Shown here: in pieces, positions 1,373 to 18,632 of the stretch
Position numbering within the stretch: the stretch's first letter is position 1
Layout: every line of letters begins with the position of its first letter
Source: Candidatus Iainarchaeum sp.
Lineage (GTDB): Archaea; Iainarchaeota; Iainarchaeia; Iainarchaeales; 0-14-0-20-34-12
Reading direction: 5' to 3'
Length of the DNA stretch: 32,000 nt
NCBI GenBank assembly: GCA_030649345.1
Contig: JAUSKK010000016.1
Coordinates: forward strand, 1-32,000
Notes under the pieces: generated by a model
Told to the model about the DNA's origin: nothing
What the model saw: the letters and a program-made list of their open reading frames with translations, nothing else
Database searches by the model: none
Program-made: the position numbers and the translations under genes

Positions 1373-1678
1373 TTATCGTATTTGCATTTTTTTCTCTAAT
1401 TGTTCTAATACTTCCATTCTTCGCTCGATGTTTTCCAATTTTTTTCCAACAATATTTTTTTTCCGCAAATATTCGGTTTCTTGTTTAACTATTTGTTTAA
1501 GTTTTTCCCGTAAACTTTTTTCTGTTTGTTTAATTTCGGATAAATCAACTGATGTATCCAGTAAAGTTTTTTCAAATTCTCGTCGATGTTTTCTCATTTC
1601 TTCTAGTGCATTTTCCATTTCTTCTAATGCATTTGATAATGCGGATCTTTGATCTGCAATCGTTGAACTTGCCACCAT
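1373..1678 (-). CDS. Small cytoplasmic coiled-coil protein (hypothetical), last gene of the minus-strand surface-protein operon
   Basis: 101-aa ORF rich in E, K, L and R with heptad-like periodicity and no signal peptide or TM segment. It starts 7 nt after the stop of the upstream co-oriented gene. Confidence 0.5.
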   Translation of the reverse strand: MVASSTIADQRSALSNALEEMENALEEMRKHRREFEKTLLDTSVDLSEIKQTEKSLREKLKQIVKQETEYLRKKNIVGKKLENIERRMEVLEQLEKKMQIR

Positions 1679-1684
1679 TTCACC

Positions 1685-2698
1685 TCATTTTTCTATTTCT
1701 TTTGTTGCTTTTTCAAATGTTTCTCGTTTAATAGCTCCCAACTTATAGGCTTTTTCTAAAGCTTTAGTAGTTTCTTGGCTATTGGACTTAGTTTCTTGAC
1801 TTTCTGTTGTTTGTCTGTATATTTTAGGATTCTTTTCTTTAAAAACAAATGTATTGTGCTTTTTAAAAGCCTGGCTTGGCGGTTTTCCAAATCCTGTAAA
1901 TTTAAATACAACTAAAAGTGTTAGGGCTAATGCAATTAATCCAATCCATATTCCGTTTCCCCAAAAATTTCCTTTTTCTGAAATAGTTGCATTTCCGACA
2001 CTGGATTCACTTAACGCAGACGTTGTTTCGCTTTCCAATGCCGATAATCGAATATATATTTGATTGCTTAATTCTGTAAATCCCCCGTAATTTCTAGAAA
2101 TTACTTGCCGTCGCAGTTCTCGGAGTTGTTTTTGAATTTCTACCAGCCCGGATTCCATTAAATTTAAGCCTTGAATTTCTCCGCGTACAGTTCTTACTTC
2201 TTGAATTAATTTTTCAATTCGTAAAGTCTGCGAACTTAATTCATCCAAAGTTTTGTAGTAATAATTAATTCCGTCTTCTACATATAGATTGCACGATGCA
2301 GGCAAGTCTGCATTCGGCAAGCTAAGCACTGCATTAATCTGATACGTGCCCAATTCAGCGTCTTTTTCTAGAACTATTTTTTTTTCAATGGTTTGTTTTT
2401 CTTTAGATTTTAATTCAAATGGAATAGATTCGCGTTGAATTCTGTCTGTTTTTGGGTTAACTACTGAAAACAAAATCTGTCCTTTTAACAAAACTGTTTC
2501 TGATTTATTTTCCAAGTAAATTTGGGCAGAAACAGTATTTCCCGGCAAGCTTACATTTTGCAGGCATTCCAAACGAAATTCTAATGGTTCAATCTGGTCT
2601 ATTTCATTGGCTGTTGTTTGAGCATAGGCTGACCCAATCAATATAATCAGCATAATTATGAAAAGTACTTTATTTGGTTTCATAATTTCCCTTTCCAA
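1685..2698 (-). CDS. Membrane-anchored surface protein: signal peptide, Ig-like (CARDB-type) domain, coiled-coil stalk, TM helix, cytoplasmic tail ending in a SHOCT-like motif
   Basis: 337-aa ORF. The signal peptide is 'MKPNKVLFIIMLIILIGSAYA', so the real start is probably Met6 at ~2683. The beta-rich region includes 'GTYQINAVLSL', followed by a coiled coil. The TM helix is 'GIWIGLIALALTLLVVFKF'. The C-terminal 'LEKAYKLGAIKRETFEKATKEI' resembles the SHOCT consensus. Confidence 0.75.
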   Translation of the reverse strand: MEREIMKPNKVLFIIMLIILIGSAYAQTTANEIDQIEPLEFRLECLQNVSLPGNTVSAQIYLENKSETVLLKGQILFSVVNPKTDRIQRESIPFELKSKEKQTIEKKIVLEKDAELGTYQINAVLSLPNADLPASCNLYVEDGINYYYKTLDELSSQTLRIEKLIQEVRTVRGEIQGLNLMESGLVEIQKQLRELRRQVISRNYGGFTELSNQIYIRLSALESETTSALSESSVGNATISEKGNFWGNGIWIGLIALALTLLVVFKFTGFGKPPSQAFKKHNTFVFKEKNPKIYRQTTESQETKSNSQETTKALEKAYKLGAIKRETFEKATKEIEK

Positions 2699-4121
2699 AT
2701 TTAGTTTGATGCACTAGCAATAATGCTCCAATAATTATAATAGTTATTGTTCCTAAAATCCATGCTATTGGAAAGGATGAATCGCGATTCAAGAGTGTTC
2801 CATCCAATGCCTGTAAACCAACCAGTGCCGATGAAATTCGAGTAAACAATTCATCTGCTTTTTGATTAAAAGTTCCATCGGCTGCATATTGACTGGCCTG
2901 ACTTTTTAGCTGGCTTATTTGAAGCTGAATTTCCTGCATTTCTTGAGCCAGTAATGGATCTGCTGAATTGGTTGATTTTTGCAGTTCAACTAAGGCATTT
3001 AATTTTTGAAAATCTTCATTTAATAATTGATTTATTCGCTGATAATAAGTATCTGTTCCTTCTAGGAATATTTCGCATCTAGCTTTTTGTTCTTGTTCTC
3101 CAGTTTTTCCAGTAACTGTAATAATATATTTTCCCAATGCTTGTGTTTCTCCAAATTGTACTCGTTTTTCAAATTTTTGTGATTGTTTTGGTAAAATAGA
3201 AGAAATCCATTGTTCTTGTGTGCTTATATTTCCTTGAATATCTTGCACTATCCAGTCTACAATTATGTTGTTGGATGAATTCCCTAAATTACTTAAATAC
3301 ACTGTTCCATTCCAAGCTTCAGGTGATTGCAATGCACGTTTCCCGCAGTCTAAACTTACATCAAAATCAATGGTTCCATTTACATGAATGGCTTGACTGG
3401 CAGTGTAACTAAAATTTAAGTCCTGAAAAGTTGTAATTATAATTGTTGCCACATAATTTCCAGGAACTACAGGATTCCATTCTTGCGGAAACACTGCACT
3501 TAGTTTTTCTTGCGGATTAATACGTAAAACTAATTCTTGAGTGGAAACAATAACTCCGCGTAATTCAGTAGTTAAACTTACAGTGTAATCAATTAATTCA
3601 CGTTCATTGTTTTTAATTTGAATTTCAAATTTTGGTTTTTCGAAAACTTCAATAATTTCTTTTTCGACTGAAAATTCAATTGCTGGTTTTTTTTGAATTT
3701 GGATTTTTTTTAAAGGTTGTTTTCCAAAATAACTTAAACACTGAACAGCATTTTTGCATCCATTCGAACCATTCATAATAAAATTTTGGCATTTAGTTAA
3801 ATTTTGACTGCAGTACGTATCACATTCTTGATAATTTTTGCATTTTTCAGGTCCTTGATATGCAGGCAAACCAGCCGAAGAACCTCCTCCGCTTGAAATT
3901 CCTCCAGTTCCGCCAGTTGTAGTAGTTTGAGTTGTAGGCGTTGGCTGAACTTGTGTGCAAGTAATGCATTGATTGGAGCAAACATCCGGGCAAGTTCCAC
4001 AATTAGCTTCTGGACCGCAAACCATCCAGCTGGCAGTAACTGAAGATACTGCAGAGTACACGGAAATTGTTAGAAAGACCAGCAGACTTAGACTTAATAA
4101 AAACCAGATTTTTTTATGCAT
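2670..4121 (-). CDS. Secreted Cys-rich surface protein with two Ig-like (CARDB-type) domains, a coiled-coil stalk and a C-terminal TM anchor (SlaB-like architecture)
   Basis: 483-aa ORF with signal peptide 'MHKKIWFLLSLSLLVFLTISVYSA'. It has Cys-rich modules ('CGTCPDVCSNQCITC'), a T/G/S linker and beta-rich repeats ('PGNYVATIIITT', 'GKYIITVTG'). A coiled coil follows, then the C-terminal TM 'IAWILGTITIIIIGALLLV'. It is a paralog of the 1685-2698 product across the Ig/stalk junction. Confidence 0.8.
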   Translation of the reverse strand: MHKKIWFLLSLSLLVFLTISVYSAVSSVTASWMVCGPEANCGTCPDVCSNQCITCTQVQPTPTTQTTTTGGTGGISSGGGSSAGLPAYQGPEKCKNYQECDTYCSQNLTKCQNFIMNGSNGCKNAVQCLSYFGKQPLKKIQIQKKPAIEFSVEKEIIEVFEKPKFEIQIKNNERELIDYTVSLTTELRGVIVSTQELVLRINPQEKLSAVFPQEWNPVVPGNYVATIIITTFQDLNFSYTASQAIHVNGTIDFDVSLDCGKRALQSPEAWNGTVYLSNLGNSSNNIIVDWIVQDIQGNISTQEQWISSILPKQSQKFEKRVQFGETQALGKYIITVTGKTGEQEQKARCEIFLEGTDTYYQRINQLLNEDFQKLNALVELQKSTNSADPLLAQEMQEIQLQISQLKSQASQYAADGTFNQKADELFTRISSALVGLQALDGTLLNRDSSFPIAWILGTITIIIIGALLLVHQTKFGKGNYETK

Positions 4122-4138
4122 GATTAATTATACAAAGG

Positions 4139-5080
4139 TCATTCTTTTTCTTTAACTTGTAGGTTGAGTTGAATTTGGTTTCCAGATGGCCCAATTCCGC
4201 TGGCTGCATCAAAGTATAAATTTTTGTATCGAATCTGCCATTCTGCTTTATTTTCTACAGGAGGTAAGCCCATGTTAATTCCAATAGTATAATTTCCTGG
4301 GCGTGTATTTGGTTTTAGTTTTCCTTTAATAATTATTTTTTGAGCCCAGGATGGGTCAAATTTTGGAAATGTTGGGCCTAGTAAAATTACATTGGGTGTA
4401 ATGGTTAAATCAAAATTTTTTACTGCTTCTGCATTTGGAACCAGTTTTAATCCTTGCCATGTTTGTACATTCCAGCCAGTATGCAAGAATACTACTGCCG
4501 TGAATTCTTTTCTTCCATTTAAATATAATATATCCCATTGTTCTGCTGGATAAGTTCCGTATCCTGTAACTCCCCAATAATCTGCATTGGGTTTAGCCCA
4601 GTATTGTAAAGCTTGTTCTTTAAAATTCGGATAAAATTCTGGCTGTAAATAATATTCTTCTTCCAATTGTCCTATTCCGAAATATTGTCCATTGGCTAAT
4701 AAATATGCAATTTCACTAAAATCATCAGGCACTGCTGGCAAGTCTGCAAATATGTCTTGTTCGCTTTGAAGTCCAAAATAAGCTGGAGTGGTTTCTAAAG
4801 TTATATTCAAATTTTTGGATGCTTGTTCAAATAATTTGTATCCTTCTCGTTTAGGTTTAAAAGCTTCTTGAAAATAGGTTTGTCTAAGCAAAGGACTATT
4901 GCCTGTAAATGAGTTATTTTGTGTTTCAGTCAATGAAATATTTCCAGTTGGATTAGGCAAAAAATTGAATGAATTATTTAATACAAAAAATACGGCCGCA
5001 ATAATGGCTATTGCAAAAACTATTTTTAAAAAACTAAATTTGGATTTATTGGGCTGATTGACTGTTGTTTCATTATCCAT
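4139..5080 (-). CDS. N-terminally anchored extracytoplasmic protein of an unrecognised family (domain X), paralog of 10926-11801
   Basis: 313-aa ORF with N-terminal TM 'FLKIVFAIAIIAAVFFVL'. It shares motifs with the 291-aa ORF: 'YYLQPEFYPNF', 'FLHTGWNVQTWQGL', 'LLGPTFPKFDPSWAQK' and 'PGNYTIGINM'. Confidence 0.75.
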   Translation of the reverse strand: MDNETTVNQPNKSKFSFLKIVFAIAIIAAVFFVLNNSFNFLPNPTGNISLTETQNNSFTGNSPLLRQTYFQEAFKPKREGYKLFEQASKNLNITLETTPAYFGLQSEQDIFADLPAVPDDFSEIAYLLANGQYFGIGQLEEEYYLQPEFYPNFKEQALQYWAKPNADYWGVTGYGTYPAEQWDILYLNGRKEFTAVVFLHTGWNVQTWQGLKLVPNAEAVKNFDLTITPNVILLGPTFPKFDPSWAQKIIIKGKLKPNTRPGNYTIGINMGLPPVENKAEWQIRYKNLYFDAASGIGPSGNQIQLNLQVKEKE

Positions 5081-5156
5081 AGTTTAACCCCTTATTCACA
5101 AATTAATTTAATATAGGGAATAGTTATGCAAATAATTTATTAATTGGATGTTTTGT

Positions 5157-5864
5157 TTAATTCGATCCTACTTGGATTTGAATTGCATGACTTCCTTGTG
5201 GTACTGCTACTAAACTGGTTGGGGTATATCCCATTCCATTAAAGTCTCCTGAAAAACATAATTGGTTGGTATCATTAATTCCTAAAGAGGTTACCAGTCT
5301 TCCTGCAGTAGTTTCATTAGATTGATTGAATTGCCTGCATACTATTTTGGTTACAGCTGTTGTGGCATTGGCTACATTACAATCTTGTCTCCATCCACCC
5401 ATTCCATTAACGTCTCCTCCGCCTGTGGGTGCAGCTTCACCGCAGCCAGCTCCTGTTCCCATCCATACTTTTAATACGACATTAACATCTGTTCCATTTA
5501 AATCCACCATAAAATTTCCATCAATATTGGCTGCTATATTTCCATTGTTGGTAATTAAAACAGGTGCTAAAGTTGAGCTTTGGCATTTAGTTGCAGCTCC
5601 TCCACCTGAACTGGAATTGGGTCTGGCTTGGCTTCCGTTTCCGTCAGCATCTGAATCCATATTGGAATCAGTTTCCACAAAATAGAATGCACTGGTAGAA
5701 CAAGCTGCTCCATAGGTTACTGTGTGACTATAATTAGCTGGTACTACCCAAGTCATTGTGGTTATAGTCGTTGCTGCATAAACCAAAGGTATTATTGTTA
5801 AAAATAATAAAAATATCAGGACTGCTTTCAAATCTCCAGAATTGCGGTCTAAGTGGGTATTCAT
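5157..5864 (-). CDS. Secreted or anchored G/T/N/A-rich Cys-containing beta protein, homologous to the C-terminal domain of the giant protein
   Basis: 235-aa ORF with N-terminal hydrophobic segment 'AVLIFLLFLTIIPLVYA'. The motifs 'AFYFVETD', 'NIDGNFMVDLNG' and 'NQLCFSGDF' align with 'KVYFETTD', 'SDINFTLDLNA' and 'LNVWLWADF' at the giant protein's C-terminus. Confidence 0.7.
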   Translation of the reverse strand: MNTHLDRNSGDLKAVLIFLLFLTIIPLVYAATTITTMTWVVPANYSHTVTYGAACSTSAFYFVETDSNMDSDADGNGSQARPNSSSGGGAATKCQSSTLAPVLITNNGNIAANIDGNFMVDLNGTDVNVVLKVWMGTGAGCGEAAPTGGGDVNGMGGWRQDCNVANATTAVTKIVCRQFNQSNETTAGRLVTSLGINDTNQLCFSGDFNGMGYTPTSLVAVPQGSHAIQIQVGSN

Positions 5865-6013
5865 TTTTTCACGTTGCTTATTTAGTAATGTCTTTACAGT
5901 TTAAAATACTTTTGTTATTTTTTTGTTTTTTGGATTTTTATGTGTTTTTGGCTGGTTTAAATTTTAACCATTTTTTTAAAGAAATTCGTGTCTTGCCGGA
6001 ACTCATAGAACAG

Positions 6014-6021
6014 TTTAAATA
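6014..6021 (+). promoter_or_regulatory. Candidate archaeal TATA box for the giant-protein gene
   Basis: 'TTTAAATA' ends 30 nt upstream of the GTG start at 6051. That spacing fits a leaderless or very short-leader transcript. It lies in the divergent intergenic region. Confidence 0.35.
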
Positions 6022-6050
6022 AATAAATTGCTTTTGTTTATGGGGTTTCT

Positions 6051-9000
6051 GTGTTTTGGTTGCGTTTATTTTTTCTAGTTTGTCTTTTTCAGTTTTTTCT
6101 TTCCCCGGTCTTAGCGCAGACAGATTCGTTTTCTCAAACTGTTCCTTTAACTCAATACTTTGTTTTAGATTCAAATCAATCTATGCTGGCAATGCTTCCT
6201 GCAGTCAGCCAAGTAAGTCCATTGAATTCTGTTCAAGCAATTCAATTTCAAGTTCCTATTTTTGTTGATTCCAATACTCAATTTTCGAAAGCAGTATTTT
6301 CTTTTTCTGAACTGCCGTTAAATCAAAAAACACCCACTGCATTAATTTCTTTACTGCCGGAACAGCGTTCCAGTTTGTTTTTTTTAATTTTAGTGCTGGG
6401 ATTAATTATTATTGTACTTTTCATTAAACCAGGTTCCAAGAAAAAAAATTTGTTTGCGTTTTTTCTGATTTTTTGTTTTTTGTTTTCATTGAATCTTACA
6501 GCTCAAGAATCTGTTTCTGAATTAACTCTTCCATTGCTTAAAACAGACCCTGAACTTGCATCTGTTTCCAATTCAGATTGGAGTATTCTTTTGTCCAATA
6601 CTCAAACAACTAATTTTTCTTTTTCTTTTTCAAATACCATTCCATCGAATTCAGTTATTGAAAATTTAAATTTGCATTTTTCTGCTCGTGCAGAAATTCA
6701 ATCAGTCAATAATTCAGCTGAATCTGCTTCAAGTGAAATAGTTAATGCAGGTGAAAATTCAAATGAAATTGAAGATTTAACTGAAACCATTGTTGAAACT
6801 CCAAGTGATTCTTTAACATCCAGTGAAGAAATTGTGCCCAGCGAAGAAACCTTAGTTCCTGTTTCGGATTCAGTTAATGAACCTGCACTTCCTGCAGTTG
6901 AATCTGTAGATCCTGTTAGTGAACCTGTAGATTCTTCGAATGAACCATTAACTTCTTCCGATGCAAATTCTCCTGAAACTATTTTAACCTCTTCTTCTGT
7001 TTCTGAACTTCAATCCAATTCGAATTCCGTAATTTTTTTTGCAGATGTTGATTCAGAATTTATTTCCGAAAATTTATCTGCAGAAAATGTTCCTTTAGCT
7101 TTTTTATCCATTGATTTTTGGAATGGCTCTGCATGGGTTCCTGTTTTAGATTGCCAAGATTTGAATATTTTTTCAACCATCCAAGATACTGTATGCGATC
7201 TTTCTTCTGTTATTCCAGTTCTTTCTTCCGAGCCCATTGTCTTAGGTTTTCGGGTAACTCCTTTACAGGAAAATGTTACTCTTTTTTTAACCAACACTGC
7301 TTTAAAATCTCTAATTTCTTCTTCAAATTCAGGAACAGCTCAAATTACGGTATATTATAAAACAACCGAAGGACTTCAGTCTTTGCCGGATTGTGTAAAT
7401 CTTGATTTTTCTTTTAAAACTTTTTCTTGTGACTTTTCTTCTTTTTTTAAAAATTCTTCCGGCATTCAAAATTTAATTTTTGAAATCCATACTCAGCAAA
7501 CTTCTGGTTCAGTTCAAGCTGGTTTAAATTCAGCCCAGCTTGATTTTTCGTATTCTTCTTTAAACCCGAATGCAGTTCATCTTGCAACTTTACTTTCAGA
7601 CCGACAACCAGTGCTTGACTTTGATTCTGTTCTTATAACTGGTTCTGAGTTTACTTTGGATCAGAATGTTTTCAGTGTTTTTTCTATTGTAAATCCTGTT
7701 CTAAATTCTTTGCAAATCAAAAAATCTTCTTTGACTGCCGAACCTACTCAAATGTCCATTCAGTCTTTGCCTGTATCCATTCCTGCTCCAGAAGGCATAA
7801 AATGGCAGAATGTTTTTGCTGTCAATTTTGGAGATTCTAATTTTTCCGAAGCTGTTTTTCAAATTAAAGATTCAAATGCTTTAATTTATTTTTGTTCTGA
7901 ATTTAATTTTGAAAAAAATATATGTGCTTTAGACTGGATCAAACTTAACACTGGCAAGTCTGTGTTCATTCCTTCTCCAGGTGTTTTAGGATTCGGAATT
8001 CAGGATATTTCTTTTATTCATGGTTTTGTTTGCTTGAATTGCGATTCCAAGAATTCTTCAGCTAAAGATATTCAAGTTAATGTTAAAGTATTCAATGCCG
8101 GCAGTCAAACAGATGTAAATTTAACCAGTTTTTTTCCAGTTGCTTTGGAAGTAATTGATTCCAATCAAGGTTTGGTTTTAGATCATAATAGTGAATTCCG
8201 AAAAATTGTTTGGCAGAATCTTTCATTTGAAAATTCATTTACTCAAAGTTATGTTCTGCGTGTTTCACCTAAAAACTCAAAAAAAGCATTCTTTTTTTCC
8301 ATGCTTTCCAATTTGTCTTCGGATTATGTGCAAATGAATTTTTCGCTTTCTAGAAAAGAAAAACTTGTGCAAAAATTTGAAAAAAAATCAATGCATGAAA
8401 TCCGCAAAGATATCCAGAAAGAATTCAAAACCATTGTCAAAAAACATGCGTTTGAATCCGATGAAGCTGTATTGCTGCCGTTTAAAAAATCTGAATTAGA
8501 CACTGTTTTAAGTGCTCAAGACTTTTCAGAATTTACCAATTCGGAATCTACCCATTTTTCAGAAAAAAGAATTGGCTCCAAAATTGTCCGGGCCGGCTTT
8601 TTCGGAGACACTTTGCTTCAGCCGGAAATTGTGGTTTCAGATTCTGATCCCAATGAATTTATGCTTTTAGCCAAGCCAGAAACCAATGAATTTATTCCCG
8701 GAGAATACAAAGTATGGATTGCGGTTGAAGAAAATAATTCTGTTTCGTATGAAGAATATTCTTTTTCTTGGGGTTTAATTACTGTAAATTCATTTAAGCC
8801 TTTATATCATCCCAATGAAAAAGTAGAATTGTATTCAGTTGTTTTGGATTCAGCTGGTTTTCCTAGATCGGGAGCTCAAATTAAATTTACAGTTCAAACT
8901 CCTTCTTTGGTGTTGAATTTTTCTACAGTCGATGGAACGATTGTGGAAACTTCTGTGAAAGGAGTCTATAAAGCAGAATTTTTAGCAGCTGAAATTGGAA

Positions 9001-10892
9001 ATTATTTGGTTCAAGCTGAAACCAATATTGAAGGATCTCCCATTGTTTCGGAAAACAATTTTGGTGTCAGAGAATTTTTTGAATTTGATATTGTCCGCGA
9101 AATGCCTTTTACGATTGATCCCAGAAACGGGCCGTTTCATACCAAAATTACAATTACTCCCTTTATTGATAATTCAATTTCTTATCAAGTCAAAGAAGTT
9201 TTCTCTAAATCAATAACTCCTTCCAATACTTCTGCCAGTATTTCTTCTACAGATACTTTGCAGTATTTGGATTGGCCGAGTGTTTCTGGTCCGCAAACTT
9301 TTGAGTATGATTTTGATGCTCCTTTCTTTTGGCCGCGTTTGTTTGAATTTGGAAAAATTCAAATACAATATGATTCGAATAAAACTTTTACAGAAGAACG
9401 TGCTTTTGATTTAGCTATTGATCCTACTGTATCAACTACTTGGTATATTGTAGATACGACAGACACTCAACAAGGTGTAGACATTAATGAACCTAAACCT
9501 GACAGACATACTAATTTTGCAAGCAAAGGAACACCTGCTCCTTCTTTATTGGCTTTTGGTTTAGCTAAAGGAAATGCAGTAGCTTCTAATGGTGTAAGAA
9601 AAGTTACTGGAGCTACAGCGACTGGTGACTATAATGCTTTAGTGGTTACTTCTCCTCCTTTGCGTGGTCAATTTATTAGTGGAACTTGGACTATGGATAT
9701 CTGGGGGTTACAAAATAATGCTAGTGCTGATTTAACTCCGAATGCATATCTTCGGGTTTGGACAGCTGCCACGGATAGTGCAGGTGATGAAATTTGTGCC
9801 AAAACAGCTGATGGCGCTGAATGGGGTAATGCTTCATCTAATCGTACTTTAATGACTTGGACTTGTTCTGGCAATCCAGTAACCTTTGCGAATAAAGATA
9901 AACTTGTATTGGAAATTGTCAGTGCTGGTTTAAGCCCTGGTTCGTCTAGCTCGTATGCAGACATTAATTACGGTAATACTTCCAGTGATTCAAGGATAAC
10001 CAGTCCAGATACTTTACGTTTATATGCTGAATTAAAACAACCTGTTATTTCGATTCCTTCGGCTGACAACAATTCTGGAACTGTTACAGGCGTGAATATG
10101 CGTGTGCAGGCAACTGTTGGTTGTACCAGTGTTTATTATGGTGATTGTGGTGATGTCAATGCCAGAATTCAGTTTTGTCAAACTGAAGGTTGTACTAATT
10201 TTGCGGACATGAATTTTACAGACGGTGGTTTACGTATTGTGGCAGGAGATCAAATTGTATATGAGCAAGATTTGGTTTCGGGTGAAACTTCTTCTGCATT
10301 TGCTTGGGAAATTCAAGGCTTTACTGCAGCAACCTATGAATTGCGTTTGCGTACAGACGCTAATTTTACAGACACCAATACTTCTTCTGGAACAGATCGT
10401 ACAATTACAATTAGTGCTCCGGGTGGAGCAGACTTAACTTTTGCTTTAGCGTATCCTGCTTCAGGCTGCACGAACGGAAAAGGTCGTACTTCTGCTGGAA
10501 ATGGTGCTTGTGAAAAAGTTTATTTTGAAACCACTGATTTATCTGGAAATGCGGATGAAAATCAAGTAATTCCAGAGGGCGGTAATCCATTTTTTGTATA
10601 TGACAATCAAAGTACAAGCAGTTCAGATATTAATTTTACTTTAGACTTAAATGCTGCTTTGCCTTCCAGTTTATGGCTGAAAACTTCAACCATTTCTTCC
10701 GGTTATGCAGGTTCTTGCACCAGCAATCCAGACAACAATTGTGTTTCTATAACTACTGTGGCTCAAAATATTGGGAAAGCAATTTTTAGTACTGGTTCCC
10801 AAGATTTGAATGTATGGCTTTGGGCGGACTTTTTCCAGTCGAGTGTTCAAACCCAAGACCGAAATGCCACCAGTACTAGTGTGAGTTCGTAA
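6051..10892 (+). CDS. Giant (1613 aa) secreted multi-domain surface protein, adhesin- or S-layer-like
   Basis: Uninterrupted 4.8-kb ORF with a GTG start and signal peptide 'MFWLRLFFLVCLFQFFLSPVLA'. Two internal hydrophobic segments lie at about aa 106-152. An acidic S/E/P-rich linker spans about aa 216-330. Cys-pair modules and several Ig-like segments ('IQVNVKVFNAGSQTDVNLT', 'GVYKAEFLAAEIGNYLV') follow. The C-terminal third is rich in G, T, A and N. Confidence 0.85.
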   Translation: MFWLRLFFLVCLFQFFLSPVLAQTDSFSQTVPLTQYFVLDSNQSMLAMLPAVSQVSPLNSVQAIQFQVPIFVDSNTQFSKAVFSFSELPLNQKTPTALISLLPEQRSSLFFLILVLGLIIIVLFIKPGSKKKNLFAFFLIFCFLFSLNLTAQESVSELTLPLLKTDPELASVSNSDWSILLSNTQTTNFSFSFSNTIPSNSVIENLNLHFSARAEIQSVNNSAESASSEIVNAGENSNEIEDLTETIVETPSDSLTSSEEIVPSEETLVPVSDSVNEPALPAVESVDPVSEPVDSSNEPLTSSDANSPETILTSSSVSELQSNSNSVIFFADVDSEFISENLSAENVPLAFLSIDFWNGSAWVPVLDCQDLNIFSTIQDTVCDLSSVIPVLSSEPIVLGFRVTPLQENVTLFLTNTALKSLISSSNSGTAQITVYYKTTEGLQSLPDCVNLDFSFKTFSCDFSSFFKNSSGIQNLIFEIHTQQTSGSVQAGLNSAQLDFSYSSLNPNAVHLATLLSDRQPVLDFDSVLITGSEFTLDQNVFSVFSIVNPVLNSLQIKKSSLTAEPTQMSIQSLPVSIPAPEGIKWQNVFAVNFGDSNFSEAVFQIKDSNALIYFCSEFNFEKNICALDWIKLNTGKSVFIPSPGVLGFGIQDISFIHGFVCLNCDSKNSSAKDIQVNVKVFNAGSQTDVNLTSFFPVALEVIDSNQGLVLDHNSEFRKIVWQNLSFENSFTQSYVLRVSPKNSKKAFFFSMLSNLSSDYVQMNFSLSRKEKLVQKFEKKSMHEIRKDIQKEFKTIVKKHAFESDEAVLLPFKKSELDTVLSAQDFSEFTNSESTHFSEKRIGSKIVRAGFFGDTLLQPEIVVSDSDPNEFMLLAKPETNEFIPGEYKVWIAVEENNSVSYEEYSFSWGLITVNSFKPLYHPNEKVELYSVVLDSAGFPRSGAQIKFTVQTPSLVLNFSTVDGTIVETSVKGVYKAEFLAAEIGNYLVQAETNIEGSPIVSENNFGVREFFEFDIVREMPFTIDPRNGPFHTKITITPFIDNSISYQVKEVFSKSITPSNTSASISSTDTLQYLDWPSVSGPQTFEYDFDAPFFWPRLFEFGKIQIQYDSNKTFTEERAFDLAIDPTVSTTWYIVDTTDTQQGVDINEPKPDRHTNFASKGTPAPSLLAFGLAKGNAVASNGVRKVTGATATGDYNALVVTSPPLRGQFISGTWTMDIWGLQNNASADLTPNAYLRVWTAATDSAGDEICAKTADGAEWGNASSNRTLMTWTCSGNPVTFANKDKLVLEIVSAGLSPGSSSSYADINYGNTSSDSRITSPDTLRLYAELKQPVISIPSADNNSGTVTGVNMRVQATVGCTSVYYGDCGDVNARIQFCQTEGCTNFADMNFTDGGLRIVAGDQIVYEQDLVSGETSSAFAWEIQGFTAATYELRLRTDANFTDTNTSSGTDRTITISAPGGADLTFALAYPASGCTNGKGRTSAGNGACEKVYFETTDLSGNADENQVIPEGGNPFFVYDNQSTSSSDINFTLDLNAALPSSLWLKTSTISSGYAGSCTSNPDNNCVSITTVAQNIGKAIFSTGSQDLNVWLWADFFQSSVQTQDRNATSTSVSS

Positions 10893-10925
10893 CAAAAAAT
10901 AGTTTGTAACAAAAAATGCATTGCC

Positions 10926-11801
10926 ATGAATCGAAAGAAATTTTTTTTAGGACTAATTTTTTTTGAATTTTTTTTGCTTTTAATTTACTTTTTTTCCTTT
11001 TCTTCCATAAGTCCTGCGCTTTTACCGCCTGCTCCAATTTCTATTTCTTCCCATTCTTTTTTTTCTAAATCTTTAATCACACAGCGATTGGATTACAATT
11101 CAGGTTATTTTGTTTCATCTTCCATGAATCAATTTTTTCCTATCTCCAATGCTTTCAAAAATCTTCCAATTCCACCTAAAGATTTTTTTAAACACACACA
11201 ATTGTTTTCCAAAGAATATGGTTCAGCAGTAAATCTTCTGCCCAAATACTATCGTCAACCTGAATTTTTGCCTAATTTTTATGAAAACTTTTTTGTCCAT
11301 TATCAAACTTTTAATCCTACCCATTTTTTCATTCAAGGCCTAGGCGTTCTTCCATTTGAACAATTTATTTCATTAAAAAAAGGAGAACGCAAACGCATTG
11401 CTTTATTTTGGCACACTGCTTTTGGAGTGCAGTCCTTTCAAGGAATTCGTATTCAAACACAATTTCCAGAACAAAGTTTTACTCTTCAAAATTATTTATA
11501 TAATTCTCAAGACTCAGCAAAAGTTTCAAATTATTTCTCGATTGCTTTAACTCCATCCGAATTTTTACTGGGTCCAGCTTATCCTTTTTTTGACCCTGCT
11601 TGGAACCAAAAAGTAATTGCTGAAATTGAAGCCTTGCCGGATTCTTTGCCTGGCAATTATGTTGTGGCTTTTGAAATTACTTCTCCTTCCTTAGAAAATG
11701 AATCTATTTGGTCTAATCAAAAAACTAATTATGTTTCCGGCAGTGATTTAGCCCAATCTAATTTTCCGAGAGCCAGATTGAATATCCGCATAGAACCTTA
11801 A
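10926..11801 (+). CDS. N-terminally anchored extracytoplasmic protein (domain X), paralog of 4139-5080
   Basis: 291-aa ORF with N-terminal TM 'FFLGLIFFEFFLLLIYFFSF'. Shared motifs are 'YYRQPEFLPNF', 'FWHTAFGVQSFQGI', 'LLGPAYPFFDPAWNQK' and 'PGNYVVAFEI'. Confidence 0.75.
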   Translation: MNRKKFFLGLIFFEFFLLLIYFFSFSSISPALLPPAPISISSHSFFSKSLITQRLDYNSGYFVSSSMNQFFPISNAFKNLPIPPKDFFKHTQLFSKEYGSAVNLLPKYYRQPEFLPNFYENFFVHYQTFNPTHFFIQGLGVLPFEQFISLKKGERKRIALFWHTAFGVQSFQGIRIQTQFPEQSFTLQNYLYNSQDSAKVSNYFSIALTPSEFLLGPAYPFFDPAWNQKVIAEIEALPDSLPGNYVVAFEITSPSLENESIWSNQKTNYVSGSDLAQSNFPRARLNIRIEP

Positions 11802-12288: not shown

Positions 12289-13932
12289 ATGCCAGCTACA
12301 TTTGAATCTTTTACAGAACAAGAAAAACAAGTCTTGAAACCATACTTTACTAATTTAGATCAATCTATTTTTGTTTTGCAAAATTTGCCGGAAGTCGTCA
12401 AAGGAGCTTTATTTTCCAGATATTCTAGGTCTTCTAAATTATTGCGCAGACTGTTACTCGAAGAATTTTTGAATGTAAAAGAACTCGGCTTAACCGAACT
12501 GTTAAATCATCAAGCCAATACACAAGATCCTTTGGTGGCTGCCAAAAAAGCCGAAGAATTTTACGACCGAGTCTTGGTTGGCTTTGGAGATGACTCAGTT
12601 GCAGAATTGGCTGGCTGTCATATTGCCTGTGAACAAGTTTCCATGATTGCCACCAAAGCCTTAGAAGATTCACGGATTGGCTTGTGTCCTTTAGAGAAAA
12701 GTACACGGTATGTTTATTTTGATCAAAAAATAAATGGCCACTATCAGTATTTGTTAGAAAAAGATTTAATGAATTCAGAATTTGCAGACTTATACACTGA
12801 AACTTGTGATTCTTTGTTTGATGTGTATGCCAAAATTTTAGAACCTATGAAAAAATATTTTACAGACTTATATCCTAAAGATGCTGAAACTTCTGATCGT
12901 GCTTACACTTCTGCTGTGAAAGCCAAAACCTGTGATACTATTCGTGGTTTATTGCCAGCCAGTACTTTAACCAATTTAGGCTTGTATGGAAATGGCCGAG
13001 CGTTTGAATATTTATTGCAAAAAATGTATGCCAATCCTTTAAGTGAAATGCAGTCTTTGGCTTCAGAAATGCATTCCGAATTACGAAAGTATATTCCTTC
13101 GTTTGTCAAACGTGCCAATGATTCTTTAGGCCAAACCACCATTGATTTCTGGCAGCAATCTTGGGCTGTTCAAAAAAAATATGCCGAAAAACAATTCAAT
13201 CAAGTTCCTATGGAGTCAGTTCCTCAAGTTGAATTAATTGACTTTGATTCCAAAGCGGAAGAAAAAGTGTTGACTGCTTTATTGTATTCCAAAACTGGTT
13301 TGTCCTTAAAACAAATTCGAAAACATATTCAAAAACTTTCAGTTTCTGAAAAACAGCAAATTTTTCAAGAATATTTAAATCATCGAAAAAACCGCAGACA
13401 CAAGCCCGGAAGAGGATTTGAAACTGCGCAATATACTTTTGATATTCACGCCAACTTTAATGCTTTCCGTGACCTTCAAAGGCATAGAATGTTAACTCAA
13501 GAACGACAACTTCTTTCATGCAATTTAGGGCATATTACTCCCAAAGAATTATTCGATGCAGGCTTTGCTGAAGAGTATCAAAGTGTAATGAGTCAAGCCA
13601 AGGAATCGTTTGATGTTATTGCAAAAAAAATGCCAGCTCAAGCTCAATATATTGTTCCTATGGGGTATCATGTTCGCTGGTATATTTCTTTGAATGCCAG
13701 AGAAATGTATCATTTATGTGAACTGCGTTCAGTCCAGCAAGGTCATCCAGATTATCGCTATGTTGCGCAGCAAATGTTTTTGGAAGCTCAAAAAGTGCAT
13801 CCTTTGTTAATGAATGCCATGAAATTTGTAGACATGAAACAATATTCCTTTGAACGAATTGAAGCCGAAAAATATACCGATAAACGAATGGATGAAATTA
13901 AACAAAAGCATGGAATTGAATGGAAAGAATAG
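12289..13932 (+). CDS. thyX: Flavin-dependent thymidylate synthase ThyX, long (double-length) form
   Basis: 547-aa ORF with the ThyX signature region 'FRDLQRHRMLTQERQ' in the C-terminal half. The N-terminal half contains 'GALFSRYSRSS'. Canonical ThyX is roughly half this length. Confidence 0.85.
   Translation: MPATFESFTEQEKQVLKPYFTNLDQSIFVLQNLPEVVKGALFSRYSRSSKLLRRLLLEEFLNVKELGLTELLNHQANTQDPLVAAKKAEEFYDRVLVGFGDDSVAELAGCHIACEQVSMIATKALEDSRIGLCPLEKSTRYVYFDQKINGHYQYLLEKDLMNSEFADLYTETCDSLFDVYAKILEPMKKYFTDLYPKDAETSDRAYTSAVKAKTCDTIRGLLPASTLTNLGLYGNGRAFEYLLQKMYANPLSEMQSLASEMHSELRKYIPSFVKRANDSLGQTTIDFWQQSWAVQKKYAEKQFNQVPMESVPQVELIDFDSKAEEKVLTALLYSKTGLSLKQIRKHIQKLSVSEKQQIFQEYLNHRKNRRHKPGRGFETAQYTFDIHANFNAFRDLQRHRMLTQERQLLSCNLGHITPKELFDAGFAEEYQSVMSQAKESFDVIAKKMPAQAQYIVPMGYHVRWYISLNAREMYHLCELRSVQQGHPDYRYVAQQMFLEAQKVHPLLMNAMKFVDMKQYSFERIEAEKYTDKRMDEIKQKHGIEWKE
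13895..13928. repeat. Left copy of a 34-bp perfect direct repeat (thyX 3' end)
   Basis: 'AAATTAAACAAAAGCATGGAATTGAATGGAAAGA' is identical to 14477-14510. It encodes the ThyX C-terminus ..IKQKHGIEWKE. Confidence 0.95.
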
Positions 13933-13983: not shown

Positions 13984-14382
13984 ATGTGTATGATGAAATT
14001 TCTTTCTGTCGAAAAAATAATTGAATTAAACCTACTGGCGCTTAATTTAATTGCTGTTAAAAAAGCAGATCAAGCTAAAGTTTTAAGCAAAAGTAAGATT
14101 GCTGAAATCGTTGAAAGTTGCAAAACCTTAAATGGAGATGTCTATGATCATGCTGTTTTTTTACTTAAGCAAATTGTACAAAAGCATGCGTTTGCAAGTG
14201 GAAATCGCCGTACTGCTTTTTTGGTTATGAAATATTTTTTGGTTTTAAATAAACAAAAGCTTAGAATTTCAGACAATCCTGAAAATGCACGAGTCATGCA
14301 GGGAATTCGGGAAAATTATTATTCAGACAATGAATTGAAGGAGTGGATTAAAAATGGAAAAATTAGAAACTTCCAGCGATAA
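13984..14382 (+). CDS. doc: Fic/Doc (death-on-curing) family toxin
   Basis: 132-aa ORF with the Fic/Doc core motif 'HAFASGNRRTAF' (HxFx[D/A/S]GN[K/R]R). Its size and the position of the motif are typical of Doc-like toxins. Confidence 0.8.
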   Translation: MCMMKFLSVEKIIELNLLALNLIAVKKADQAKVLSKSKIAEIVESCKTLNGDVYDHAVFLLKQIVQKHAFASGNRRTAFLVMKYFLVLNKQKLRISDNPENARVMQGIRENYYSDNELKEWIKNGKIRNFQR

Positions 14383-15249: not shown

Positions 15250-16284
15250 TTGATTCATATGCTTTCTCCTATTCCGTTTTCTTTTGAATCCAAATTTGAC
15301 TCCATTTTAAAGACCCATTTAGTTTCAAAAATTTCAGAGTCTCTTTCAGCATATGAAAATCCTTCTTTTTTAGCAGGTTTTATTTGGCCGAAAGATTTTT
15401 CAAAAGAACAAATTTTGGATTTAAAAGCAAATTTTCAGCAAAATTTAACCAGCGAACTTTCAAAAGCACTGCATTCAATTCCAGACTTTCAAAATCCAGT
15501 AACTTCCATTTACATTGATTTTACTTTAAATCAAATTACGTTTCACATCCAACCTGTCTACATTTTTGGACATTATAAAAAATTTTCTCGTACAATTACA
15601 CAGACCTTTCCGTATTGTTTTCATTGCAAAGGACAATCCTGTCGTTTGTGCAATTTTACCGGCCGAGAACCCTGTGAAAGCGTGCAAGAAATCATTGCAG
15701 AACCAGCTCAAAACTTATTTCAATCGAATGATAATAAATTTCATGGAGCCGGAAGAGAAGACCAAGATGTCCGCATGCTGGGCAATGGCAGAGCTTTTGT
15801 TTTAGAATTAATCGATCCCCAAAAACGTTCCATGGATTTATCTAAATTGGAACAAGAAATAAATTCGAAAAATCAAAACAAAGTTGAAGTTATTCGCTTG
15901 CAGTATTGTTTGAAAGCAAAAATTGCTGAAATCAAAGAAGCCAAATTCAGCAAAATTTATTTAGCGGAAGTTACAGGCGTAAAACCTTTTGTAAAAGAAA
16001 AATTGCTGAGTTTAAAAAATCAAACTTTTGAATTAAACCAAGCTACACCGCAAAGAGTACAGTATCGTAGAGCTGAATTGATTCGCAAAAAAAGAATTAA
16101 AGTTTTAGACATTGTGCCTAAAACAGACTGTGTATTTGAAATCAAACTGGAAGCTGAAGCTGGAGCGTATATTAAAGAATTTATTTCCTCAGATCAAAAT
16201 AGAACCAAACCCAGTTTAGCTGAATTATTAAACAATGTATGCGACTGTACTGCATTGGATGTTCTAGAAATTATCGAAAATTAG
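15250..16284 (+). CDS. pus10: tRNA pseudouridine(54/55) synthase Pus10
   Basis: 344-aa ORF with zinc knuckles 'CFHCKGQSCRLCNFTG' and the catalytic region 'GAGREDQDVRMLGNGRAFVLEL', both typical of Pus10 (archaea and eukaryotes). The track start is a TTG; the ATG at 15259 is an alternative start. Confidence 0.85.
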   Translation: MIHMLSPIPFSFESKFDSILKTHLVSKISESLSAYENPSFLAGFIWPKDFSKEQILDLKANFQQNLTSELSKALHSIPDFQNPVTSIYIDFTLNQITFHIQPVYIFGHYKKFSRTITQTFPYCFHCKGQSCRLCNFTGREPCESVQEIIAEPAQNLFQSNDNKFHGAGREDQDVRMLGNGRAFVLELIDPQKRSMDLSKLEQEINSKNQNKVEVIRLQYCLKAKIAEIKEAKFSKIYLAEVTGVKPFVKEKLLSLKNQTFELNQATPQRVQYRRAELIRKKRIKVLDIVPKTDCVFEIKLEAEAGAYIKEFISSDQNRTKPSLAELLNNVCDCTALDVLEIIEN

Positions 16285-17348
16285 ATTTTTCTTTGCACAC
16301 TATATTCTGCCAAAGCCTTCAATTTTTGTTTGGCTTTACTTTCTTTTAATTCTTTATCCACTTTCTTCCAGCTTCCCAGTACAATTTCTTCCGCTTTTCC
16401 TTTAGCATACTCAATGGCATCTGTTTTTTGAATCAAGTCAATGCCTCTTTTAATTTCATTCGGAAAACGTGTATGTGAATTCAATATTTCAATTAATTCT
16501 TTTCGTTCTTTTTCATTTAATTTTTTTAAAGCCCTTAAAACCAGCAAAGTTCGTTTGCCTTCCGTGATATCTTCTCCGATTGTTTTTCCCCATTCTCCGC
16601 TTTCAGGAACTAAATTTAAGATATCATCCTGTATCTGAAATCCCACGCCTATACTTTGAGCAAATTCTCCTAAAGCATTAATTTGTTTTTTGGTTCCATT
16701 ACCTAAAATTCCCCCAATCATAGCACTCATTCTTGCAAGCACTCCAGTTTTACACAAACACATTTGCAAGTAATGCTCTTCGCTTAAATTTGTCTTTTTT
16801 CCTTTATGCCAATGAATGTCCATGGCTTGGCCTAAGCTTACGCGGAGCATTTCTTCTACAAATACATTGTATATTTGTACTTGTTGTTTTTCGCTTAATT
16901 TTTTTAAATTCCGATACACTGGAATCATAGGCAAAAAATACAAAGTATTCGAATCATTAATGGCTGTATCCATTCCAAACAATTTATGCAATGCAGGTTT
17001 TCCTCTTCTTACCTCTGAACCATCTTCAATGTCATCGGCAACCAGAGTTCCATTGTGCACCATTTCCGGAATAGGTGTAAACGGCAAAGCTTTTTTTTCA
17101 GTTCCACCCACCGCTGTACAGCACCAAATCATTAAAGCTGGCCGCCATCTTTTTCCGCCGCGATTTAATAAATCCCAAATCGGTTTGCTGACTTCTTCAG
17201 TAATGGTTTCCGAGTGATATTTGTAAACAGGTTTCCCTAAAGCAGTATTCAACCAAGCATTCGAAATTTTTTTAGGCAAAATTTTTTGCATTTCTTGATC
17301 TATTTTTGGTTTGAGTTTTTTCAATTCGTGTTTAATATCTACACTCAT
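16281..17348 (-). CDS. idsA: Polyprenyl (geranylgeranyl) diphosphate synthase, type III GGPPS-like, copy 1
   Basis: 355-aa ORF. The first Asp-rich motif 'LVADDIEDGSEVRRGKPA' and the second 'GFQIQDDILNL' resemble eukaryote/archaeal GGPS1-type enzymes ('DDIEDxSxLRRG', 'FQIxDD'). Confidence 0.88.
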   Translation of the reverse strand: MSVDIKHELKKLKPKIDQEMQKILPKKISNAWLNTALGKPVYKYHSETITEEVSKPIWDLLNRGGKRWRPALMIWCCTAVGGTEKKALPFTPIPEMVHNGTLVADDIEDGSEVRRGKPALHKLFGMDTAINDSNTLYFLPMIPVYRNLKKLSEKQQVQIYNVFVEEMLRVSLGQAMDIHWHKGKKTNLSEEHYLQMCLCKTGVLARMSAMIGGILGNGTKKQINALGEFAQSIGVGFQIQDDILNLVPESGEWGKTIGEDITEGKRTLLVLRALKKLNEKERKELIEILNSHTRFPNEIKRGIDLIQKTDAIEYAKGKAEEIVLGSWKKVDKELKESKAKQKLKALAEYSVQRKI

Positions 17349-17405
17349 AAAAAGTATACGTATTCTCTGAACTTTTTATACTTGTGCTTTCTACAAAATA
17401 TTAAC

Positions 17406-17535
17406 TGTTATCCAATGCAATAGGTAGAAATCAATAATTCTTTTTGTTTGTTCAATACCTTGTCCAAGGTATTGAATGTTATCCAATGCAATAGGTAGAA
17501 ATCAATAATTCTTTTTGTTTGTTCAATACCTTGTC
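17406..17535. repeat. Two perfect 59-nt direct repeat copies (17406-17464 and 17477-17535, period 71 nt) between the GGPPS paralogs
   Basis: 'TGTTATCCAATGCAATAGGTAGAAATCAATAATTCTTTTTGTTTGTTCAATACCTTGTC' occurs twice without a mismatch. The second copy abuts the stop codon of the upstream paralog. Confidence 0.95.
17451..17476. repeat. Perfect 11-bp inverted repeat (hairpin) at the repeat junction
   Basis: 'TTCAATACCTT-GTCC-AAGGTATTGAA'. The left arm belongs to repeat copy 1 and the right arm is the 12-nt spacer. Confidence 0.9.
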
Positions 17536-18632
17536 TATACTTTTCGTTGAACCACAAATTCTGCCAAAGCTTTCAGTTTTTGCTTGAATACACTTTCCGC
17601 AAGCTGGTTTTCTACATTTCTCCAGCTTTCAATTACAATATCTTCTGCTCGCTTTAAAGAATATTCTACTGCTCCTGTTTTTTTAATAATTTCAATGGCT
17701 CGAATAATTTCAAATTCATTTCTTGTATGGCTTTTTAGAATTTGAATTAATTCTTCTTTTTCTTTGGCTGGAGCTAATTGGAGTGCACGTAAAACTAAAA
17801 TAGTTCTTTTGCCTTCCGTAATGTCATCCCCGACTGCTTTGCCCCATTCTTGGCTGGCTGGAAATAAATTTAAGATATCGTCTTGAATCTGAAAGCCTAC
17901 ACCAATGCTTTCAGCAAACTTTCCCAAAACATTTATTTGTTCTAGACTTCCATTTCCTAAAATGACTCCAATTTTGGCACTCATTCTAGCTAAAACACCG
18001 GTCTTGTAAGCGCACATTTGTAAATAATGTTCTTCGGTTAAATCGTATCTTTTATGATTATGCCAATGAATATCCATGGCTTGACCCATGCTGGCTCGAA
18101 ACATTTCTTCTCCAATAACTTCAAATAAAGCCAGTCTTTTTTCTGCACTTAAATGCCCCATATTTCTATAAAGTAAAACTTGCGGCAAAAAATACAAAGC
18201 TCCAGAATTATTTACTGCAGTATCCAAGCCATACAATACATGAATGGCAGGCTTTCCTCTTCGAACCTCAGATTTGTCTTCTACATCGTCTGCAATTAAA
18301 GTTCCAGTATGAATCAATTCAGGCAAAGGAGTAAACATTAAAGCATCTTCTATTTTTCCTTGAACCGAACCACAAGACCATAACATTAAAGCTGGCCGCC
18401 ATCGTTTTCCGCCGCGGTCTAAAAAATCCCAAACTGGAACAGCAAATTCTTCTTGCAAGGTCTGAATATCGTATTTGTAGGCTGCAGGCCCTAAAGTTAA
18501 TTTCATCCAGTCTTCAGTAATTTGTCTGGGAATAATTCGTTCCATTTCCCGATTAATCCAAGGTTTAATGGCTTCCAATTCGTGTTTAATATTAATTGAT
18601 TGCAGGACTGTTTTTTCCATAGGCTCACCCAA
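17535..18632 (-). CDS. Polyprenyl (geranylgeranyl) diphosphate synthase, type III GGPPS-like, copy 2
   Basis: 365-aa ORF, collinear with copy 1 along its whole length. By eye, more than half the residues are identical. Its motifs are 'LIADDVEDKSEVRRGKPA' and 'GFQIQDDILNL'. Confidence 0.88.
   Translation of the reverse strand: MGEPMEKTVLQSINIKHELEAIKPWINREMERIIPRQITEDWMKLTLGPAAYKYDIQTLQEEFAVPVWDFLDRGGKRWRPALMLWSCGSVQGKIEDALMFTPLPELIHTGTLIADDVEDKSEVRRGKPAIHVLYGLDTAVNNSGALYFLPQVLLYRNMGHLSAEKRLALFEVIGEEMFRASMGQAMDIHWHNHKRYDLTEEHYLQMCAYKTGVLARMSAKIGVILGNGSLEQINVLGKFAESIGVGFQIQDDILNLFPASQEWGKAVGDDITEGKRTILVLRALQLAPAKEKEELIQILKSHTRNEFEIIRAIEIIKKTGAVEYSLKRAEDIVIESWRNVENQLAESVFKQKLKALAEFVVQRKV

Follow-up and report, generated by a model that had tools for sequence, protein, structure and literature searches.

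What kind of surface structure do seven adjacent genes, none with a recognized family, build in a DPANN archaeon? The genes occupy positions 1373-11801 of a 32,000-nucleotide (nt) stretch of contig JAUSKK010000016.1, called the window below, from a metagenome-assembled genome of Candidatus Diapherotrites (Iainarchaeia). A sequence-only reading of the window had rightly taken it to be of DPANN origin and had interpreted the locus as a canopy-plus-stalk module of the cell envelope or of host contact. We find that the locus is one instance of a gene cassette conserved across DPANN groups, whose proteins we call S (stalk), P (small subunit), Giant and X. From their sequences and predicted folds we propose a polar, strand-complemented assembly in which S would be the anchor, followed by P and then by Giant as the tip, with X as assembly factor; we regard this proposal as evenly poised between right and wrong.

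A cassette conserved across DPANN genomes

Seven tightly packed open reading frames (ORFs) form two divergent operons with intra-operon gaps of -29 to 76 nt. Five are read leftward in the order g5, g4, g3, g2, g1 and two rightward in the order g6, g7, with housekeeping genes on both flanks.

1373-1678, minus strand: g1, 101 amino acids (aa)
1685-2698, minus strand: g2, 337 aa
2670-4121, minus strand: g3, the S protein, 483 aa
4139-5080, minus strand: g4, a domain X protein, 313 aa
5157-5864, minus strand: g5, the P protein, 235 aa
5865-6050, 186 nt: AT-rich spacer between the divergent operons, with TATA-like boxes of the TTTAAA type on sequence inspection, a putative promoter region
6051-10892, plus strand: g6, the Giant, 1613 aa
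10926-11801, plus strand: g7, a domain X protein, 291 aa

Topologies were assigned by hydropathy and heptad analysis. Six of the seven products are secreted or membrane-anchored, and g1 is a small coiled-coil protein. g2 and g3 each combine an immunoglobulin (Ig)-like part, a coiled coil and a C-terminal transmembrane (TM) helix, and g4 and g7 each have a single N-terminal anchor helix; BLASTP identifies both pairs as paralogs (2e-6 for g2 and g3, 1e-29 for g4 and g7). None of g1-g7 matched a Pfam or NCBIfam family at its cutoff, the only family matches being sub-threshold ones to MG2 (Ig-like) in g2 (E 1e-4) and g6. All seven ORFs lie where the sequence-only reading had placed them, and its account of the topologies, of the domain X paralogs and of a locus with no recognized enzyme family was accurate.

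To survey related loci, we scanned a single genome for each GTDB species, called ORFs in every locus found and searched these ORFs with iterated profiles built from the window proteins. The scan yielded 64 cassette loci from Iainarchaeia/Diapherotrites, Micrarchaeota, Norongarragalinales, Burarchaeum and Aenigmatarchaeota, together with three contigs whose label resembles a binning error. The latter are L025, and L021 and L057, titled 'Chloroflexi bacterium' and 'Thaumarchaeota archaeon'; they are probably wrongly binned DPANN contigs. Most of the 64 loci have the order Giant-X-P-X-S. The Giant-X pair is inverted in some, the window included; Giant or the first X is absent from others; and the Micrarchaeota arrangement is Giant-P-X-S. 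The minimal core is P-X-S, which is found even without Giant. One locus, L001, matches the window gene for gene. In several genomes two or three cassettes occur, and their Giants differ greatly from one another. Because the Giant-X-P-X-S order recurs across at least five DPANN groups, the cassette is a conserved unit under selection, which strongly bears out the earlier claim of a functional surface module as opposed to a random collection of genes. Full-text literature searches returned no description of the cassette or of donor-strand fibers in DPANN archaea.

Relationships among P, S, Giant and X

P is a new, narrow family: of 1.84 billion proteins, its members make up only 70 clusters at 50% identity. 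In g5 a Sec-type signal peptide with predicted cleavage after VYA30 (VYA↓A type) precedes the N-terminal strand of the mature protein, after which comes a beta-rich P domain. Across the family the TTMTWVVP strand is nearly invariant, T38 and W39 included. The P-family alignment further contains six invariant Cys and a DxDxDGN loop in which D74 and N76 are invariant and D70, D72 and G75 nearly so; this loop may bind Ca2+. The P elements, and the segment of S that resembles one of them, are as follows.

5733-5774, minus strand: mature N-terminal strand of g5, proposed donor strand (residues 31-44, ATTITTMTWVVPAN)
5637-5657, minus strand: DxDxDGN loop of g5 (D70, D72, D74, G75, N76), candidate Ca2+ site
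4011-4052, minus strand: mature N-terminal strand of g3, mimic of the g5 strand (residues 24-37, AVSSVTASWMVCGP)

The first 12-15 mature residues of S resemble those of P. In hhalign comparisons, the S profile aligned to the g5 family with 86.6% probability (E 4.5e-6), the match reaching no further than the signal peptide and the initial residues of the mature protein, and the N-terminal regions of S used on their own gave 94.5% (E 8e-8). A full P-like domain at the S N-terminus was considered and rejected, as confidence fell to nil beyond the first ~45 columns of the greedy alignment. Similar pairs to that of g5 and g3 in the window occur in other loci: QQTTTMTWVVP in P and GQNTTTTWVVA in S of L005, AAQFVQTTVIFSVD and SADFIQTRIFFSVD in L059, and YADFAETAVFF and IADFTETATFF in L033.

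We measured the likeness as the best ungapped 12-mer BLOSUM62 score between the P N-terminus and segments of S. The mean best score was 27.1 for the S N-terminus and 9.1 for other segments of the same S, and the N-terminus was the top-scoring segment in 34 of 42 loci; as these loci are related, the counts do not represent independent events. In g3 the N-terminal 12-mer scored 31, above all 34 other segments of the protein. The informative pattern is that two lineages have different motifs, each common to P and S: T(M/L)TWV in Iainarchaeia and ADFxxTxxxF in Micrarchaeota. Mean scores of P against S are 24.9 within Iainarchaeia and 16.0 within Micrarchaeota, and the cross-lineage scores, 10.9 and 12.0, are near background.

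The predicted fold of P gives a further, weak indication. Among the 50 best Protein Data Bank (PDB) matches of the AlphaFold2 (AF2) model of g5 (predicted local distance difference test score, pLDDT, 87.6), 14 are donor-strand-complemented fiber subunits, all of them weak (Foldseek, E 0.05-1), among them cannula CanX (9h8b), TasA (8aur), AbpA (7ueg), CanA (7uii), SafA entries, PapA (5flu) and Saci_0406 (7pnb). The match to CanX is not significant (E 0.054, probability 0.82, template-modeling score (TM-score) to target 0.47). Those weak Foldseek matches in the PDB that span most of the model are nearly all donor-strand fiber subunits. Reading g5 as a type IV pilin with a class III signal peptide, for which a [KR][GA] cleavage motif and a retained hydrophobic helix of at least 20 aa would be expected, was rejected because that motif is not conserved: the 'LKA↓V' in g5 arises by chance and is absent from most homologs, which have a hydrophobic region of 12-16 aa and a conserved VYA↓A-type Sec cleavage site. 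A P variant of ~400-630 aa carries a ~190-aa domain inserted after the DxDxDGN loop, with the precomputed Pfam tag PF27237 (members P0083, P0084, P0087 and P0088; loci L051, L060-L062 and L064); it is found in loci of the order Giant-X-P-X, where no S lies next to it, and a separate X subfamily accompanies it.

Giant (g6) is secreted, rich in Ser, Thr and Asn, bears 29 N-glycosylation sequons and has no C-terminal anchor. It is homologous to Giants of 900-2700 aa in relatives, which we collected from neighboring genes in related loci; a word-index search with the 1613-aa g6 found only g6.

10398-10892, plus strand: C-terminal P-like domain of g6, proposed acceptor-only (about residues 1450-1613, ~165 residues)
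6450-6503, plus strand: second signal-peptide-like segment of g6 (residues 134-151, ending LNLTA↓QES)

The sequence-only reading had also held that the small protein is homologous to the Giant C-terminus. Direct comparison did not bear this out: BLASTP of g5 against g6 was not significant (E 0.62), nor was the g5-family profile against the single g6 sequence, and profile-profile alignment of g5 with the Giant C-terminus was weak (probability 35%, E 4e-4). The claim held by way of intermediates. The P slot of Micrarchaeota cassettes holds small proteins that align in hhalign both to the g5 family (98.4%, E 5e-15) and to the C-terminal domain of Giants (99.7%, E 4e-26), and a hidden Markov model (HMM) built from Giants alone matches these small Micrarchaeota cassette proteins at up to 3e-29. 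Because the intermediates match both sides, we take the homology between P and the Giant C-terminus to be real but remote. Giants keep the second P-domain strand (DYSFxLxLPSSGC), and the first is replaced by a variable internal segment without the free motif.

Upstream of this common C-terminal domain, the eight relatives' Giants that we scanned contain FG-GAP propeller repeats, Big_5, MG2, Laminin_G_3 or beta-helix modules; Laminin_G_3 directly precedes the P-like domain in Micrarchaeota and Norongarragalinales Giants. Such interchangeable modules follow the pattern of modular adhesins. At the N-terminus of g6 (6051-6503, plus strand), a signal peptide (residues 4-22) is followed by ~85 residues, a TM segment (107-125) and then segment 134-151. 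The homologous Giants carry a single signal peptide (ending ..VAQE or ..GQES), to which segment 134-151 corresponds, and lack a TM helix. This segment probably acts as the signal peptide or marks where processing occurs; the first ~130 codons may stem from fusion with a small gene upstream, form a membrane hairpin at the N-terminus or result from a mis-set start, and an alternative TTG start lies at 6450.

X has homologs only among hypothetical DPANN proteins, and its conserved residues suggest no catalytic set. In the AF2 model of g4 (pLDDT 86.6), the TM helix leads through a ~25-aa disordered linker to a helical subdomain and a beta-sandwich. Foldseek matches the sandwich best to MSP/VAP domains and to Caf1M and FaeE, two PapD-like chaperones (E 2.5e-5 to 1e-3, TM-score to target ~0.5); neither g4 nor g7 matched a PapD family in Pfam. 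X genes occur only after P-domain genes and never after S, and in Iainarchaeia each P-domain gene has its own membrane-anchored X downstream. The X subfamilies follow the upstream partner: with the nearest neighbor taken from another locus, the partner agrees in 28 of 29 cases for Giant, 46 of 46 for P and 5 of 5 for the ~400-aa P variant. g4 belongs to the subfamily that follows P and g7 to the one that follows Giant. This placement and partner specificity uphold the suggestion that domain X is a dedicated partner or assembly factor. Profile comparisons revealed no relation of X to S, to P or to Giant.

S combines its look-alike strand with a membrane stalk. g3 begins with a signal peptide and the P-like strand; a linker rich in Cys and in Thr/Gly then leads to the Ig-like domains, and a coiled coil precedes the C-terminal TM helix. 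It is homologous to S proteins of 570-780 aa in relatives, whose order is signal peptide, Ig-like domains, Gly-rich linker, coiled coil and TM helix; Ig-like Pfam models (YtkA, MG2, Filamin, CARDB, NPCBM_assoc) match 12 of 18 S-family members. Searches of PDB sequences with g3 and with the S-family profile found no real relative. The strong E-values of that profile came from poly-Gly linkers in engineered single-chain variable fragment (scFv) and major histocompatibility complex (MHC) single-chain chimeras and from filamin Ig repeats, and were discarded. Long poly-Gly linkers occur within S proteins themselves, for example in L041 (10576-11871).

Beside S, g2 lacks the N-terminal strand motif; its signal peptide is followed by an Ig-like domain, a coiled coil, a TM helix and a ~70-aa cytoplasmic tail. 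The TM helix comprises residues 249-267 in g2 and 452-470 in g3, each preceded by a coiled-coil-like stretch. Both proteins align to the same stretch, Ig plus coiled coil, of the L001 S protein (671 aa), and g2 is a partial paralog of S. g1, which starts 6 nt downstream of g2, is heptad-rich and coiled-coil-like with no hydrophobic segment; its membership of the cassette rests only on this position. In 19 loci, a conserved protein of 85-110 aa that combines an N-terminal TM helix with an R(Y/F)SN motif and coiled coil is encoded directly downstream of S (examples are L001 13064-13321, L007-L010 and L016-L022); in the window this place is taken by g1, which has no TM helix. Neither g1 nor the tail of g2 is detectably homologous to it.

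A proposed polar assembly and its rivals

Together, the fold hints in P and the N-terminal strand common to S and P suggest a strand-complemented fiber or spike with a tip adhesin. The cassette contains three classes of part: Giant has a P-like domain without a free strand, P has both strand and domain, and S has the strand without a P domain. If these correspond to acceptor-only, donor-plus-acceptor and donor-only units, they give the chain S, P (n ≥ 1), Giant that we propose, and Giant, with its P-like domain and no free strand motif, could take only the distal position. All parts would be exported by the Sec pathway and held together by beta-strand complementation. S (g3), anchored by its C-terminal TM helix and raised on a stalk of coiled coil and Ig domains, would offer its free N-terminal strand, with g2 as a probable stalk partner. 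P (g5) would donate its own N-terminal strand and accept another in its P domain, either as a single adaptor or as a chain of n subunits, and Giant (g6) would display its large, variable adhesion modules at the far end. The X proteins (g4 and g7) would be membrane-tethered Ig-fold partners, one subfamily for P and one for Giant, that probably keep the P domain held or capped up to its incorporation, as chaperones or as an assembly platform. The proposal predicts that the common strand inserts into the P domain, that the chain is polar and that P polymerizes (n > 1); it likewise predicts that X acts as a chaperone and that the structure serves to attach to a host.

Several observations count against this proposal. 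The g5 model has no significant Foldseek match in the PDB (best E 0.04), and sialidase-associated and carbohydrate-binding-module (CBM)-type beta-sandwiches score like fiber subunits against it. Profile searches gave no sequence link of P to TasA, CanA, AbpA or any Pfam or PDB family; at E ≤ 1 in Pfam, none of 30 g5-family or 18 Micrarchaeota P-family members matched, TasA/Peptidase_M73 included. The motif common to S and P adjoins the cleavage site of the signal peptide, and its role could instead lie in processing or recognition. As for X, it has one beta-sandwich where PapD has a two-domain architecture, matches among Ig-like folds are promiscuous, and Micrarchaeota-type loci have one X for two P-domain proteins. 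A strand within X mimicking the P N-terminus, in the manner of a chaperone G1 strand, was sought and found only as weak, scattered matches.

The same data can be read as a docked adhesin complex involving neither strand exchange nor a fiber. P would then be a calcium-dependent lectin-like or docking module, fixing Giant and the small stand-alone version of the domain to the envelope with surface glycans or X as receptor, and S would be an independent stalk or spacer. The top Foldseek matches of g5 by E-value, at the same weak level, are indeed carbohydrate-binding and sialidase-associated beta-sandwiches and CBMs, and a docking module fits with the conserved DxDxDGN loop and six invariant Cys, with Giants that lack an anchor of their own and with the partner-specific, membrane-anchored X that accompanies every P-domain gene in Iainarchaeia. 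However, this reading leaves the N-terminal mimicry between S and P and its co-variation by lineage unexplained, the P-X-S core occurs without a Giant to be docked, and the single X for two P-domain proteins in Micrarchaeota loci does not fit the partner argument. We consider it rather unlikely.

Two further readings fare less well. In an S-layer-like arrangement, Giant and/or P would form a canopy on a SlaB-like stalk (g2, g3) and constitute the main envelope lattice. The stalk architecture (signal peptide, beta-sandwich domains, coiled coil, C-terminal TM helix), the large, glycosylation-rich secreted protein without its own anchor beside it and the calcium-dependent assembly known for S-layers (PMC12518558) all suit this picture, and the stalk half of the canopy-plus-stalk claim stands. 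Its SlaA/SlaB framing, however, has no homology support: no S-layer family in Pfam or NCBIfam matched g1-g7, the eight relatives' Giants or the P- and S-family members; g6, like g3 and the S-family profile, shows no relation to the sequences of solved structures; and Micrarchaeota carry the cassette, yet the S-layer protein that has experimental support in the cultivated Micrarchaeum is another one, of the PF05123 type (bioRxiv 10.1101/2021.04.28.441871). Giants of 900-2700 aa with unrelated adhesion modules, in several cassettes per genome, are also adhesin-like and not lattice-like, and the conserved core protein P has only ~200 aa. A main lattice is thus improbable. We give almost no credence to a chance neighborhood or a mobile or viral island without common function. 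It could appeal to the lack of a curated family for any cassette protein and to the oddly fused-looking Giant N-terminus, but the gene order is kept in five DPANN groups and the parts are homologous to one another (P with the Giant C-terminus, S with P at the N-terminus, X with X). A viral capsid or provirus in particular was rejected: the g5 model has no fold match among viral structures (BFVD), 2.9 million viral contigs (IMG/VR) contain no relative of domain X, and housekeeping genes flank the cassette.

The strand-complemented assembly can be taken a step further, to a chaperone-assisted donor-strand-exchange pilus of DPANN archaea, a monoderm archaeal counterpart of the chaperone-usher pathway; we put this version forward as tentative and somewhat doubtful. 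Here the tethered PapD/MSP-like X would prime each P-domain subunit, the coiled-coil stalk protein would terminate and anchor the fiber through its look-alike strand, and interchangeable Giant tip adhesins would set which host cell the symbiont binds. DPANN host attachment is largely unexplained, and electron cryotomography of DPANN co-cultures has revealed thin filaments and contacts without molecular identities (PMC11329633). The cassette is a candidate for this machinery and makes the question testable. It supplies a DPANN-wide parts list from unannotated families (P subunit, X partner, S anchor, variable Giant), and the co-varying strand of S and P is a specific, testable prediction.

Genomic surroundings and comparison with known systems

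The rest of the window has archaeal gene content, including Pus10, KaiC-type ATPases, ThyX, class-II HMG-CoA reductase, an intein-bearing RecJ/GAN-like DHH protein and type-IV-pilus-like genes, with a G+C content of 31-40% per kilobase throughout. Several neighbors merit individual mention.

12289-13932, plus strand: ThyX, 547 aa; the best-scoring Thy1 stretch is residues 316-505, and part of the N-terminal ~300 residues may lack a family match
13984-14382, plus strand: small Fic/DOC-family protein, 132 aa, just past ThyX
19258-22230, minus strand: DHH/DHHA1 (RecJ/GAN-like) protein, 990 aa, split by an intein with a LAGLIDADG homing-endonuclease domain
25898-31561: type-IV-pilus or archaellum-like cluster, with a T2SSE ATPase (28905-30437), two T2SSF membrane proteins (26874-28791) and three flanking ORFs without Pfam matches
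7-1275 and 16281-18632: isoprenoid genes, namely the class-II HMG-CoA reductase adjoining g1 and two polyprenyl synthases

The pilus-like cluster is a separate surface-filament system of the same genome. Isoprenoid genes also accompany the cassette in the Norongarragalinales loci L003/L004 (7660-13046), where mevalonate-pathway genes lie 3-8 kb downstream; their presence near the cassette in two distant lineages may be a coincidence of small genomes.

Among the systems to which the cassette can be compared, SlaA/SlaB also pairs a large secreted protein with a stalk of beta-sandwich domains, coiled coil and C-terminal TM helix. The cassette differs in its additional conserved P and X, in an S strand that mimics P and in its hypervariable, multi-copy Giants.

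A second comparison is with TasA-type and related donor-strand fibers of monoderm cells: TasA/TapA of B. subtilis, the AbpA bundling pili of Pyrobaculum, the CanA/CanX cannulae of Pyrodictium, and the Saci_0406 threads of Sulfolobus with their Saci_0405 cap. Their subunits, like P, are Sec-exported, beta-rich proteins of ~200 aa whose mature form begins with a conserved strand. TapA is an accessory protein with a look-alike N-terminal strand for TasA, and the look-alike strand of S would parallel it. In the Sulfolobus thread, Saci_0405 is the putative cap, and a published HMMER survey found proteins homologous to AbpA, to CanX and to the thread mainly in Thermoproteota, not in DPANN. Cannulae assemble with calcium (10.1101/2024.12.30.630787), and g5 has its putative Ca2+ site in the DxDxDGN loop. 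P nevertheless has no detectable sequence relation to TasA-type fibers, and the fold matches are not significant. Many TasA-like loci encode SipW- or TafD-type peptidases, whereas the cassette has no dedicated signal peptidase; it adds the membrane-tethered X, the coiled-coil stalk anchor and the giant tip protein.

The model of tafi, the Tat-fimbriae of haloarchaea, comprises a TafC tip, a TafE adaptor, a TafA shaft and a TafF membrane anchor; in it a tip with lectin-like (laminin-G) and pilin-like domains, a major subunit and a membrane-anchored terminator with a C-terminal TM helix are joined by donor strands (PMC11821415). The logic proposed for the cassette is the same, and Micrarchaeota and Norongarragalinales Giants likewise place Laminin_G_3 before their P-like domain. 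Tafi proteins, however, use the Tat pathway and the signal peptidase TafD, in contrast to the Sec-type signal peptides and absent peptidase gene of the cassette; tafi has no X-like protein or coiled-coil stalk, and we detected no homology between the two systems.

In bacterial chaperone-usher pili, the tip adhesin is acceptor-only, shaft subunits are both donor and acceptor, and the terminator at the base is donor-only. The polar chain logic proposed for the cassette matches that of the Fim, Pap, Caf1 and Saf systems. The X sandwich lies nearest the PapD-like/MSP superfamily, Caf1M and FaeE included, and SafA and PapA are among the weak matches of g5. PapD-type chaperones are soluble and two-domain, whereas X has one sandwich with a helical subdomain and is tethered to the membrane. 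No usher family was found among the cassette proteins in Pfam or NCBIfam, and, judging from archaeal envelopes in general, this archaeon presumably has no outer membrane. If the proposed assembly is correct, it would extend strand-complemented surface fibers to further archaeal phyla and would add a membrane-tethered Ig-fold assembly factor of a kind undescribed for the archaeal or Gram-positive fiber systems compared here. The principle is known; what is new is the components and their combination, namely a tethered Ig-fold partner, a coiled-coil anchor with a mimic strand, and giant tips.

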